DNA from: Deltaproteobacteria bacterium
Lineage (GTDB): Bacteria > Bdellovibrionota_B > Oligoflexia > Oligoflexales > Bog-1112
DNA length: 64,000 nt
Direction of reading: 5' to 3'
Assembly (NCBI GenBank): GCA_947475005.1
Contig: CANJLI010000004.1
Coordinates: 1,942 to 65,941, forward strand
The position numbers and the translations under genes were made by a program. Of this stretch, positions 8,336 through 52,447 are shown piece after piece; position 1 is the first letter of the stretch, and each line of letters opens with the position of its first letter. Below the pieces are notes generated by a model. The model saw only the letters and a list, made by a program, of their open reading frames with translations, did not search any database and had not been told where the DNA came from.

Positions 8336-8360
8336 GGGGACACCCGATGCGAGTGTCCCC
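8336..8360. repeat. C-family hairpin, loop type 1 (GGGGACAC-CCGATGCGA-GTGTCCCC)
   Basis: The same 25-mer, or its reverse complement, recurs at 10236, 10273, 29260, 29390, 29526, 29564, 29602 and 54367. Confidence 0.9.
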
Positions 8361-18649: not shown

Positions 18650-18675
18650 GATATAAAGTGAAGAAGCGGGGACGT

Positions 18676-18765
18676 CCGTCATCCCAAGGCCCCGAAGGGG
18701 CCGTATGGGATCCCTGCATTTTTATGGAGATCCCATACGGCTGCTGCGCAGCCTTGGGATGACGG
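18676..18765. repeat. A-family repeat, full 90-bp copy (nested palindrome / four-helix element)
   Basis: The structure is CCGTCATCCCAAGG | CCCCGAAGGGG | CCGTATGGGATC | 16-nt loop | GATCCCATACGG | CTGCTGCGCAG | CCTTGGGATGACGG. Confidence 0.9.
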
Positions 18766-18775
18766 ATGAAATCGG

Positions 18776-18863
18776 GGGATGAGATCGGGGACAGCTACCG
18801 AATTAGGGAGTTGAGGCAATTGCCTCAACTCCCTAATTCGGTAGCTGTCCCCGATCTCATCCC
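18776..18863. repeat. B-family long hairpin (variant arms)
   Basis: An 88-bp palindrome: GGGATGAGATCGGGGACAGCTACCGAATTAGGGAGTTGAGGCAA|TTGCCTCAACTCCCTAATTCGGTAGCTGTCCCCGATCTCATCCC. Confidence 0.9.
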
Positions 18864-22041: not shown

Positions 22042-22117
22042 AGATCGGGTCCACCTACCGAATTAGGGAGCTGAGGCAATTGCCTCAGCTCCCTAATTCG
22101 GTAGGTGGACCCGATCT
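22042..22117. repeat. B-family long hairpin between purH and purE
   Basis: A 76-bp perfect palindrome: AGATCGGGTCCACCTACCGAATTAGGGAGCTGAGGCAA|TTGCCTCAGCTCCCTAATTCGGTAGGTGGACCCGATCT. Confidence 0.9.
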
Positions 22118-29257: not shown

Positions 29258-29632
29258 GTGGGGACACCCGATGCGAGTGTCCCCGAGCTAGTTGTAACTT
29301 CTGTCATCCCAAGGTCCCGAAGGGACCGTATGGGATCCCAGCGTTTTTATCGAGATCCCATACGGCTGCTACGCAGCCTTGGGATGACAGGGGACACCCG
29401 ATGCGAGTGTCCCCGAGCTAGTTGTAACTTCTGTCATCCCAAGGTCCCGAAGGGACCGTATGGGATCCCAGCGTTTTTATCGAGATCCCATACGGCTGCT
29501 ACGCAGCCTTGGGATGACAGGGGCAGGGGACACTCGCATCGGGTGCCCCCTGCCCCTGCCTTCGGGGACACTCGCATCGGGTGTCCCCTGCCCCTGCCTT
29601 CGGGGACACTCGCATCGGGTGTCCCCTGCCTT
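29258..29632. repeat. Composite repeat array inside the pur operon (2 x 130-bp unit of C+A elements, then 3 inverted C hairpins)
   Basis: The unit 29260-29389 is repeated exactly at 29390-29519. Three copies of GGGGACACTCGCATCGGGTGTCCCC follow with a ~38-bp period. Confidence 0.92.
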
Positions 29633-34085: not shown

Positions 34086-34126
34086 GAGGAAGGAGACTGG
34101 GAGATTGGGTCCAGGAAGGAGACTGG

Positions 34127-34202
34127 GAGATCGGGTCCACCTACCGAATTAAGGCAGAGGGGATTCCCCCTCTGCCTTAATTCGGTAGGTGGACCCGATC
34201 TC
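34127..34202. repeat. B-family long hairpin (downstream flank of the RAYT gene)
   Basis: GAGATCGGGTCCACCTACCGAATTAAGGCAGAGGGGATTCCCCCTCTGCCTTAATTCGGTAGGTGGACCCGATCTC. The left end is partly duplicated at 34088-34126. Confidence 0.9.
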
Positions 34203-34787
34203 TGAAATCACACCCAAAGGCCTGCCGCCCTGTGAATTTTTTCTAATCAGATCAATGTCCGCAGGATCCAACTTTTGGGTAAGAAATTCTTGCCAGTTCG
34301 GATGTCGTTCTACCATAAACCCCACATCAAGTAGGGGATCTATTTTTTGAAAGAGATGGGCTTGAGCACTGCTCCATTTATACGCCTCAGGGCACTTGCA
34401 TAAGTTTGCTCTTACCGGATTTAGTTCTATGTATCGCACACATTTATCCAAATAATCATCATCCATAGGAGCAGAAAAAAAACGGCCCTGCCAAAGGTGG
34501 CCTTTCCAATTCATACGCAAATTTATTTGTTTGGTGTAACTCTTATGCACCTCTCCAATGGCTAAGCTAAGAGAGCTTTCAGAGGAAGGGACAACAACGA
34601 GATGTACATGATTGGGCATTAAACAATACGCCAAGAGAGTCACTTCGTACTTTTTGCAAGATTTCTGCAAAAGATCGCAATATAGCTGATAATCAGCCTC
34701 ACAAAAAAAGGTAGATTGCTTTCTATTCCCACGCTGTGTGACGTGGTGGGGTACGTTAGGAATAACAATGCGAGGTAGTTTTGGCAT
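34149..34787 (-). CDS. REP-associated tyrosine transposase (RAYT; IS200/IS605-like Y1 HUH enzyme)
   Basis: ORF 34149..34826, with the start at ATG 34787 (MPKLPRIVIPNVPHHVTQRGN). It has the HUH motif LMPNHVHLVV and the block WQGRFFS...RYIELNPVRANL...YKWSS. The last codons run into the B repeat. Confidence 0.85.
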   Translation of the reverse strand: MPKLPRIVIPNVPHHVTQRGNRKQSTFFCEADYQLYCDLLQKSCKKYEVTLLAYCLMPNHVHLVVVPSSESSLSLAIGEVHKSYTKQINLRMNWKGHLWQGRFFSAPMDDDYLDKCVRYIELNPVRANLCKCPEAYKWSSAQAHLFQKIDPLLDVGFMVERHPNWQEFLTQKLDPADIDLIRKNSQGGRPLGVISEIGSTYRIKAEGESPLP

Positions 34788-34865
34788 AATACAAAGATAA
34801 ATAACAAAGATAAATGAATGTCGCACAGTGACTTTTTAATGAAAGAACAGAAAACAGGGAGATTG

Positions 34866-34942
34866 GAGATTGGGTCCACCTACCGAATTATGGGAGCGGG
34901 GGGTTCCCCCGCTCCCATAATTCGGTAGGTGGACCCAATCTC
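34866..34942. repeat. B-family long hairpin (upstream flank of the RAYT gene)
   Basis: GAGATTGGGTCCACCTACCGAATTATGGGAGCGGGGGGTTCCCCCGCTCCCATAATTCGGTAGGTGGACCCAATCTC. The arm change C>T is mirrored on the other arm. Confidence 0.9.
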
Positions 34943-35154
34943 TCAGAAAAAACCGCACCCCCGCGAAAATAAAACAACAGGGGGTGGGGGCCCCTGCTGC
35001 TGGCGCGGAAAATGAAGAGCCCCTTTGAGTAAATGACATCATAATTCCCCACATTTTCTACATTGCAAAAATCGATCCAACTCCACTAAAGTAGTACCTA
35101 TCAACATCTTCCTATTTTTCAATTTGTCTGGGTTATTTTTGTATAGAGGGCGCT

Positions 35155-36500: not shown

Positions 36501-36539
36501 GAGATCCCATACGGCTGCTACGCAGCCTTGGGATGACGG
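36501..36539. repeat. A-family right half copy between convergent genes
   Basis: GAGATCCCATACGG-CTGCTACGCAG-CCTTGGGATGACGG lies between the cytochrome stop (36498) and the dnaK stop (36560). Confidence 0.85.
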
Positions 36540-38594: not shown

Positions 38595-38919
38595 GGAGCT
38601 GACTTTGAGTGAGATCCCATACGGCCTACGGCCTTGGGATGACGAAGAGCAAGCGCCTCCGTCATCCCAAAGATCCGGTCGAGGAAGCGCCTCCGTCATC
38701 CCAAAGATCCGGTCGAGGAAGCGCCTCCGTCATCCCATACGGTCCAAAAGATCGGGTCCACCTACCGAATTAAAGCAGAGGGGGAATCCCCCTCTGCTTT
38801 AATTCGGTAGGTGGACCCGATCTCTATGGGATCTCCGAATTCGGTAGGTGGACCCGATCTCTCCGGTATGGAGCTGACTTTGAGTGAGATCCCATACGGC
38901 CTACGGCCTTGGGATGACG
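38595..38919. repeat. Nested repeat cluster (50-bp direct repeats flanking a 34-bp tandem, a B hairpin and a partial B arm)
   Basis: The 50-mer GGAGCTGACTTTGAGTGAGATCCCATACGGCCTACGGCCTTGGGATGACG occurs at 38595 and 38870. A 34-bp unit runs x2.6 at 38651-38737, and a B palindrome sits at about 38748-38824. Confidence 0.9.
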
Positions 38920-44267: not shown

Positions 44268-44340
44268 AGGGGACACCCCGTTGGGGTGTCCCCGAAAGGG
44301 ATTGGGGACAGCTACCCATCTTTCTTATTGTCCCCAATCC
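44268..44340. repeat. C-family hairpin (loop type 3) plus a second 13-bp-stem hairpin
   Basis: The first is GGGGACACCCCGTTGGGGTGTCCCC at 44268-44292. The second is GGGATTGGGGACA-N18-TGTCCCCAATCCC at 44297-44340. Confidence 0.85.
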
Positions 44341-48936: not shown

Positions 48937-49067
48937 CGTCATCCCAAGGTCCCGAAGGGACCGTATGGGATCTAAGGGAAGGAGATCGGGTCCACCTACC
49001 GAATTAAGGCAGAGGGGGAATCCCCCTCTGCCTTAATTCGGTAGGTGGACCCGATCTCCTTCCCTTA
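48937..49067. repeat. A-family left half copy followed by a B-family long hairpin
   Basis: The half copy is CCGTCATCCCAAGG-TCCCGAAGGGA-CCGTATGGGATC (48937-48972). A 95-bp palindrome follows, TAAGGGAAGGAGATCGGGTCC...GGACCCGATCTCCTTCCCTTA (48973-49067). Confidence 0.9.
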
Positions 49068-52350: not shown

Positions 52351-52447
52351 GGTATGAGATCGGGTCCACCTACCGAATTAAGGGAGCGGGGGAATCCCCC
52401 GCTCCCTTAATTCGGTAGGTGGACCCGATCTCATCCGATCTCATACC
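52351..52447. repeat. B-family long hairpin with duplicated right end
   Basis: GGTATGAGATCGGGTCCACCTACCGAATTAAGGGAGCGGGGGAATCCCCCGCTCCCTTAATTCGGTAGGTGGACCCGATCTCAT, followed by CCGATCTCATACC. Confidence 0.9.

Follow-up and report, generated by a model that had tools for sequence, protein, structure and literature searches.

REP-associated tyrosine transposases (RAYTs) were defined by their HUH and tyrosine motifs, by flanking inverted repetitive extragenic palindromic (REP) sequences that often lie right after the stop codon, by the GT(A/G)G head of these repeats, and by the co-evolution of enzyme and REP (Nunvar et al. 2010, PMC2817692). Pseudomonas fluorescens SBW25 has three RAYTs, each with its own group of REP doublets forming hairpins (REPINs; PMC3337134), and compensatory changes in REPIN hairpins were reported in 2011 (Bertels & Rainey, PMC3116915). 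Fusion of the ends of a RAYT unit is the classical proposed origin of REPINs and of miniature inverted-repeat transposable elements (MITEs) (PMC3337134; preprint 10.1101/2021.07.10.451892), and only RAYT Groups 2 and 3 of Bertels 2017, which are centred on Gammaproteobacteria, are held to be REPIN-associated (preprint 10.1101/2021.07.10.451892). Here we compare with these systems a locus within 64,000 nt of DNA from a Deltaproteobacteria bacterium (GenBank assembly GCA_947475005.1, contig CANJLI010000004.1, positions 1,942 to 65,941; the whole stretch is referred to as the window), in which a RAYT-like gene, RAYT-1, lies between two members of a dispersed family of long hairpins, the B elements. 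All of the features used by Nunvar et al. to define RAYTs are present here in substance, and the B elements are probably of the REPIN/MITE type.

The B elements were found by an inverted-repeat scan over the whole window with outward extension of the arms, and their census covers about 90 kb of one genome. Seven long perfect palindromes were recovered in the window, with 100% complementary arms of 36 to 47 nt and loops of 0 to 4 nt; these are the seven full copies listed by an earlier sequence-only reading of this DNA. Their 18-nt core (GGTCCACCTACCGAATTA) has 15 matches in the window at three or fewer mismatches, among them a solo right arm at 38837-38861, versus 0.03 expected from shuffled sequences. 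Folded as single-stranded DNA (ssDNA), the hairpins reach -47.6 to -60.6 kcal/mol (z -17 to -21); for single B arms the values (-2.0 and -2.7 kcal/mol; z +0.2 and +0.4) do not surpass those of shuffled sequences. Each arm is conserved over its outer 25 nt and variable yet complementary in its inner part, with GTAG on the 3' arm in all seven copies, the complementary arm on which the earlier reading had placed it. All seven are intergenic by the map of open reading frames (ORFs), four of them 4 to 19 nt from a stop codon and one more extending over the RAYT stop. The same hairpins are present, base for base, in the metagenome-assembled genome (MAG) GCA_947467855.1 at NCBI and in independent assemblies from other samples (L001-L003, L019), and since these contigs were assembled independently the hairpins are not assembly artefacts.

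Two of these copies enclose RAYT-1, as the earlier reading had described. The upstream hairpin (34866-34942; arms of 37 nt, loop of 3 nt) lies 78 nt from the ATG and is of the GATTGGG/CCCAATC variant, and the downstream one (34127-34202; arms of 36 nt, loop of 4 nt) overlaps the end of the ORF. The hairpin at 18776-18863 (arms of 44 nt, loop of 0) stands 16 nt from a stop codon and adjoins a doublet of another repeat, the A family; the arms said to be common to all copies are not shared here, where GGGGACAGC takes the place of GGGTCCACC, and the arm GGGGACAGCTACCGAATTA is intermediate between B and the B' type found at the paralogue of RAYT-1 (see below). At 22042-22117 (arms of 38 nt, loop of 0), also 16 nt from a stop codon, the inner region is of type II (GGGAGCTGAGGCAA), and the copy at 38749-38823 (arms of 37 nt, loop of 1 nt) carries the AAGCAG/CTGCTT variant. 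The hairpin at 48973-49067 (arms of 47 nt, loop of 1 nt) abuts an A-family unit 4 nt from a stop codon, and its palindrome runs 10 nt past the common foot. The last copy, at 52354-52434 (arms of 40 nt, loop of 1 nt), begins 19 nt after a stop codon. Three partial duplications accompany these hairpins: a solo right arm (GAATTCGGTAGGTGGACCCGATCTC; 38837-38861, minus strand) that lies 13 nt after hairpin 38749 and has neither inner module nor partner arm; a tandem duplication of 2 x 26 nt with one mismatch (34087-34138, plus strand), comprising the left foot of hairpin 34127 and its flank and not mirrored on the right side; and an unmirrored 10-nt tandem duplication (CCGATCTCAT x 2; 52425-52444, plus strand) at the right foot of hairpin 52354, which breaks up a palindrome that would otherwise be longer. 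A leftward extension of the window by 5.6 kb (L016) contained no B element, exact scans of two large contig collections with GGGTCCACCTACCGAATT returned only single chance matches inside unrelated genes, and Rfam had no match within the window. The GATC at the hairpin foot was dropped as a special site (observed/expected 0.94 for GATC in the window), as was the idea that a separate inner module had entered a shorter hairpin: the inner sequence is never present by itself and its types are alignable variants, and it is treated here as a fast-evolving spacer.

RAYT-1, the sole RAYT within the window, is encoded on the minus strand by an ORF at 34149-34826 with a likely ATG start at 34787 (coding sequence 34149-34787, stop codon 34149-34151). 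Its 212-aa product carries the NHVHLVV and YIELNPVRA motifs that had been claimed for it, matches Pfam Y1_Tnp at 1.2e-16, and has H60, H62 and Y119 at positions that are invariant in the alignment of homologues (A1). Against the NCBIfam models it scores 77.5 bits for REP_Tyr_transpos (cutoff 80) and 25 bits for transpos_IS200 (cutoff 55); by way of calibration, a 109-aa fragment of Escherichia coli TnpA_REP reaches 150.5 bits on the former. A sequence search of the PDB up to an E-value of 1 returned a single match, TnpA_REP (4ER8; 1.8e-4); the pairwise score with the E. coli Group 2 RAYT, at 24 bits, marks a distant relationship. The AlphaFold model of the paralogue, built with 51 homologues (predicted local distance difference test, pLDDT, 90.7), also has 4ER8 as its best fold match in the PDB (E 5e-8; template modelling score 0.67 on the target), followed by the IS608, ISDra2 and IS200 transposases at about 1e-5. 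Because of the 77.5 versus 25 bits and of 4ER8 being both the only PDB match and the best fold, the protein appears closer to RAYTs than to IS200/IS605 transposases, and these comparisons support its assignment as a putative, domesticated-type HUH/Y1 single-strand DNA transposase of the RAYT type.

The family to which RAYT-1 belongs is widespread, with more than 7,900 matches at E <1e-10 that are about 220 aa long and come from many phyla, and homologues were found on only 24 of 72,556 plasmid records, all at <45% identity. The nearest foreign RAYT (P0003) is 61% identical. At the C terminus, family members are extended by a conserved stretch of about 80 aa, which is absent from the NCBIfam model and from E. 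coli TnpA_REP. Homologues align to RAYT-1 only up to residue ~193; after GRPLG they all continue as F..LE..TG....KPG(R/P)K, and the last 18 codons and the stop codon of RAYT-1 lie inside hairpin 34127, with about 90 nt of paralogue sequence absent. Judging from this alignment, the tail of RAYT-1 was lost to its downstream hairpin. A C/A single-nucleotide polymorphism at 34449, which changes Leu113 to Phe, is the sole difference between the window and L019 in 20.6 kb. The RAYT unit is separated from a divergent cytochrome c554-family gene by two terminator-like stems, each followed by a T-run, which lie on the RAYT strand immediately upstream of hairpin 34866 (34953-35001, minus strand) and may shield RAYT-1 from read-through transcription.

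A look-up of the protein cluster led to a paralogue, RAYT-2 (P0130/P0002), on contigs from the same samples. Because its locus (L011) and the window have identical C-family repeats and B-type arms in common, both are taken to come from one genome or species. Over 193 aa, RAYT-2 and RAYT-1 share 80% identity (dS 0.87, dN/dS 0.12, pS 0.51), which indicates that the duplication is old and that both copies are under purifying selection. It lies between two perfect variant hairpins of its own, GAGATCGGGGACACCCACCGAATTA... (arms of 37 nt) and GAGATCGGGGACACCCGCCTAATTA... (arms of 41 nt), and its stop codon falls within the foot of the downstream one. The hairpin-gene-hairpin units of RAYT-1 and RAYT-2 are collinear at about 80% nucleotide identity, hairpin 34866 corresponding to the upstream hairpin of RAYT-2. 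One further contig (L008) has an imperfect RAYT-2 upstream hairpin 28 nt from the contig end and was not relied on. The paralogue locus also contains a nested symmetric array (L011 3987-4150) made of short B arms that lack the inner GAATTA module, arranged as three left arms, AAA and three right arms (L3 L2 L1 - R1 R2 R3), in which the inner 45 nt per side are perfectly complementary; its origin could be a series of insertions into hairpin apices or a mirrored duplication of arms, and it is the only place where nested insertion is considered possible.

Inverted ends also flank the gene in more distant relatives. At the loci of homologues with 50-57% identity, these are single ends with a common GGGGACA core, which in these relatives from other bacteria is combined with a GT(A/G)N head. 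At L010, ...TTCCGGGGACAGTATAC lies upstream and GTATACTGTCCCCGGAA directly after the stop, with further copies dispersed in its 20 kb; at L020, the upstream end is AATCTGGGGACACCATAC, and the stop is followed by GTATGGTGTCCCCAGAATT and then by two stuttered copies; in its strain variant L021 the upstream end is duplicated in tandem over 26 nt. At L009 the gene stands between arrays of a related unit, and little was seen of such ends at L022. The B' arm (GATCGGGGACACCCACCG) aligns with the clade ends and the B arm (GATCGGGTCCACCTACCG) is a diverged version; because of this alignment, each B hairpin resembles a left and a right RAYT-unit end joined head to head. In a related species (dnaK 81% identical at the nucleotide level), neither B nor RAYT is present in the syntenic region. 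Empty sites were sought in related species (L013-L015), where synteny breaks exactly at the repeat-bearing spacers and no clean empty site was obtained. The number of stuttered downstream ends also differs between L020 (8840-8926, 9596-9664) and L021 (400-513, 1183-1231), and stutter of the foot is likewise seen beside B (34087-34138 and 52425-52444) and beside B' in L011 (9985-10001, 10077-10097 and 10806-10832); slippage or nick-and-restart at the RAYT cleavage site may be its origin.

Co-variation between copies was scored in nine hairpins, the seven of the window and the two at the paralogue, over 36 stem positions numbered from the common foot (GAGATC.../...GATCTC), for a total of 324 cells. 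Only two cells are not Watson-Crick, both at the outermost base just beyond the edge of the element (copies 22042 and 38749), and none is a G·T pair, even though 15 of the 36 columns contain two to four Watson-Crick pair types and the alignment requires 20 or more double-sided changes, with many transversions among them. The sequence-only reading had stated that every difference is mirrored on the opposite arm, and this describes the stems but not the loops: at the apex of hairpin 34127 a homopolymer differs in length by 1 nt (G4 versus C5), and hairpin 34866 has one substitution beside its centre; neither change is mirrored, and both lie inside the loop. The partial duplications beside three copies (34087-34138, 38837-38861 and 52425-52444) are not mirrored either. 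Among the four hairpins that flank the two RAYTs, 4 of 36 and 9 of 36 stem pairs differ between paralogues, together with one mirrored indel, and each hairpin is perfect; this divergence (11-25% of stem pairs) is about one third of the synonymous divergence of the genes (pS 0.51). The palindrome also reaches into variable outer sequence, by 10 nt at 48973 and by 6 nt at 18776. Co-variation of this kind, the central observation of the earlier reading, is a known property of the REPIN class; the pointer was real as far as the stems are concerned, but it omitted the previous publication of compensatory change in REPIN hairpins (PMC3116915).

Taken together, the RAYT-like enzyme, the bracketing repeat, the co-diverged pair of paralogues and the clade-wide inverted ends support a REPIN/RAYT-like reading of the locus. 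Inverted flanking repeats with one at the stop codon are found at RAYT-1, at RAYT-2 and, as single ends, at L010 and L020; the repeat is dispersed and extragenic, with seven hairpins and one solo arm in 64 kb; the gene is of low copy number (one copy in the window and one 80% paralogue), rare on plasmids and under purifying selection; and an HUH motif and a single catalytic tyrosine are combined in an IS200/IS605-like fold. Inverted conserved ends with a variable spacer, a long hairpin and compensatory changes are likewise as in REPINs. The B elements are therefore probably non-autonomous REPIN/MITE-type hairpins derived from the inverted ends of a RAYT unit and moved in trans, now or recently, although we infer their mobility from these features. 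Of the REPIN/RAYT-like system proposed by the sequence-only reading, the class of the enzyme and the bracketing held up, and the paralogue pair adds to their support. The B elements are not REPINs in the strict sense, since each REPIN end has a short imperfect palindrome of its own and single B arms fold like shuffled sequences.

A mechanism consistent with this reading, modelled on the IS200/IS605 and TnpA_REP literature, would start on ssDNA at replication forks, where the element would fold into its hairpin of 36-47 bp. The RAYT would recognise the conserved outer 25 nt of the arm, or the foot, cut through a 5'-phosphotyrosine intermediate and re-join or copy the hairpin into other intergenic ssDNA. 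Within the hairpin, intrastrand templating would revert or mirror each change in a single arm, by quasipalindrome template switching or by mismatch repair acting on the folded strand or on a folded transposition intermediate; only the outer arms, which the enzyme reads, would be under selection. Quasipalindrome template-switch mutagenesis was reportedly described by Ripley in 1982, and also by the Lovett laboratory (PMC7202029). We know of no established mechanism by which REPINs are copied. We prefer such templating to selection alone as the cause of the perfect symmetry, which may thus be a property of long hairpins in replication and not necessarily of the RAYT. Templating is favoured by the absence of mismatched or wobble intermediates from the 324 cells although 20 or more double changes took place, by stem-pair divergence that is fast for two-step compensatory evolution at a pS of 0.51 and is to be expected if mirroring and reversion of a change in a single arm are about equally likely, by the restriction of unmirrored point changes to the apical loop, where the folded strand cannot template, and by the extension of the palindrome into variable outer sequence. 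The choice between strong selection and templating of one arm by the other, as the earlier reading had framed it, was reasonable, but left out host template switching at quasipalindromes, which turns imperfect inverted repeats into perfect ones during replication (PMC7202029). The data cannot separate host templating from RAYT-coupled copying or from conversion by dispersed copies. It is conceivable, but quite improbable, that a RAYT clade beyond Groups 2 and 3 keeps GGGGACA-ended hairpins across phyla and that arm copying is part of RAYT-dependent replication instead of host switching; if so, the solo arms, the foot stutters and the L3-L2-L1/R1-R2-R3 array would be its intermediates or by-products.

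Several observations weigh against the derivation and trans-mobilization of B proposed here. The recovered strains are near identical (0-2 differences in 5-20 kb), with no insertion polymorphism and no mobility observed among them, and the species is absent from both large contig collections, which confines the B census to the ~90 kb. A single B arm does not form a hairpin, GTAG is part of the stem whereas in E. coli it precedes the REP hairpin on the 5' side, and all 10 clade members tested score below the 80-bit cutoff of REP_Tyr_transpos. RAYT-1 lacks the conserved C-terminal tail of its clade, has 18 hairpin-encoded residues in its place (alignment A1), and may be impaired by this loss. 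The C family, which shares GGGGACACCC with the B' arm and the clade motif, might on sequence grounds be the main RAYT substrate. Finally, the argument from rates would be weakened if the flanking hairpins had been overwritten by conversion from dispersed copies, as they could have been.

The C family is a 25-nt hairpin, GGGGACAC-N9-GTGTCCCC, that occurs in both loop orientations, with 11 units in the window at 2705-2729, 8336-8360, 10236-10297, 29260-29626 (six units), 44269-44293 and 54367-54391; the inverted doublet at 10232-10301 has perfect 29-nt arms. The A family (18675-18766, 29301-29390, 29431-29520, 36503-36537, 38613-38740, 48938-48972 and 57568-57706; about 13 units) consists of inverted doublets of two imperfect hairpins of ~38 nt, TCCGTCATCCCAAGG[CCCCGAAGGGG]CCGTATGGGATC and one with a GCTGCGCAGC centre, placed 16 nt apart. 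These doublets resemble the dimorphic REPs of enterobacterial bacterial interspersed mosaic elements (BIMEs); an A unit adjoins three of the seven B copies, and no transposase was linked to the family. A and C repeats make up a 134-nt block that occurs twice in tandem with 100% identity between the copies (29260-29393 and 29390-29523), and 29260-29523 forms a dense repeat cluster between two purine-biosynthesis genes. An A-like variant of ~95 nt, with ends TCCGTCATGCCCAGG...GGGGATGACGGA, is present once in the window (63301-63397), at 20741-20832 of L011, and in seven or more copies within 22 kb of the relative that lacks B (L013 4330, 6611, 6976, 7076, 8385, 8592 and 13681), so the abundance of repeat families differs between sister lineages. 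A unique AT-rich palindrome of 70 nt (55627-55696), with perfect 31-nt arms and an 8-nt loop, has the same ends as the A family (TCCGTC...GACGGA).

Other explanations of the symmetry and of the enzyme's substrate have to be weighed against these observations. Purifying selection combined with turnover, whereby mismatched copies are lost and perfect masters seed new ones with no templating between arms, is how preserved palindromy was read by Nunvar et al. and by Bertels & Rainey, who invoked selection for complementary mutations, and the identical outer arms of five of the seven copies would fit a recent spread from a master. Such turnover should leave decaying copies with stem mismatches, but none was seen among the nine hairpins; the RAYT-flanking hairpins, presumably resident since the paralogues split, differ at 11-25% of pairs without intermediates, and the palindrome enters variable outer sequence at 48973 and 18776. 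We consider this account rather unlikely, and templating the better explanation. A different doubt concerns the substrate, as the RAYTs might act chiefly on the C family and B be a derived by-product that is no longer mobilised. C units fold alone like classical REPs (-8.7 kcal/mol, z -3.4), form the inverted doublet at 10232-10301, and have GGGGACACCC in common with the B' arm and the GGGGACA core in common with the distant clade ends. However, no C unit flanks either RAYT gene, and the B arm beside RAYT-1 is diverged relative to GGGGACAC even though it is B that occurs in seven copies in the window, which makes this explanation unlikely.

The locus could also be read without any REPIN-like system. 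An ordinary autonomous insertion sequence (IS) of the IS200/IS605 type, with solo B elements as short-lived MITEs and neither domestication nor REPIN-like persistence, would account for the duplication of the entire unit in the genome with both of its ends, for the IS-like terminal inverted ends in relatives, and for a fold common to IS608, ISDra2 and IS200. Active IS copies are near identical, whereas the gene copies here diverged long ago (dS 0.87) and have evolved under purifying selection (dN/dS 0.12); the IS200 model gives 25 bits against a cutoff of 55, so that neither a family-model match nor near-identical copies place the gene in IS200/IS605. The near absence of homologues from plasmids (24 of 72,556) and the perfect palindromes without left/right polarity, in contrast to IS200/IS605 ends, also make an ordinary IS improbable. 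Even less probable, in our view, is a purely host-functional origin, in which the hairpins would be mRNA 3'-end stabilisers, terminators or protein-binding sites under selection and the adjacency to RAYT would be incidental. REPs have been co-opted for such functions in enterobacteria (reviewed in PMC3337134), and all of the copies are intergenic; five of the seven either cover a stop codon or have one less than 20 nt away. But no T-run follows any B copy in either direction, no B stem was among the calls of the terminator scan, and no copy combines the GC-rich stem and U-tract of an intrinsic terminator on either strand. The 324 cells contain no G·U-compatible pairs, which argues against selection at the RNA level; both paralogues are bracketed on either side by their own variant; and neither an Rfam match nor such hairpins in the syntenic region of the related species were found.

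In comparison with known systems, the hairpins resemble the REPIN-RAYT systems of SBW25, with which they share long near-perfect hairpins, conserved ends, a variable spacer with compensatory change, an extragenic and dispersed distribution, and diverged RAYT paralogues that are each flanked by their own repeat type. Unlike SBW25 REPINs, the arms have no palindrome of their own and the stems are 100% paired in every copy; the RAYT is of another, widespread clade with an extra C-terminal domain of ~80 aa, and the host is Oligoflexia/Bdellovibrionota-like and not a gammaproteobacterium. Named relatives of its DnaK, at 72-80% identity, point to an uncultured bacterium of Oligoflexales/Bdellovibrionota-like affinity. 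E. coli TnpA_REP (RayT/YafM; PDB 4ER8) is the best match in both sequence and fold, with the HUH motif and the single catalytic tyrosine, and the E. coli REP/BIME repeats similarly contain GT(A/G)G and flank the gene. Identity to TnpA_REP is only about 20%, however, with 150.5 bits there and 77.5 here on the NCBIfam model, and E. coli REPs are imperfect hairpins of ~35 nt with GTAG single-stranded 5' of the stem, whereas here GTAG is paired within a stem of 36-47 bp. The catalytic fold is shared with the IS200/IS605 elements IS608 and ISDra2, in which the ssDNA hairpin and phosphotyrosine mechanism presumed here is established, but the ends at this locus are mutually inverted and fused into symmetric hairpins, and the gene copies are old and selected. 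Quasipalindrome template switching would produce a perfect inverted repeat, as is found in all B stems; descriptions of it concern single reporter loci and hotspots and not a process that keeps a dispersed family symmetric, the role inferred for it here. If only the ordinary reading holds, the locus is one more REPIN/RAYT-type system, useful mainly for the annotation of Bdellovibrionota-like MAGs. As a compact system with two diverged enzyme/hairpin pairs in one genome, non-folding arms and perfect stems, it could also be used to study what a RAYT reads, how enzyme and hairpin co-evolve, and whether symmetry is kept by selection or by intrastrand templating. The comparison as a whole supports a REPIN/RAYT-type system in a new host and a new enzyme clade, and not a new kind of element.

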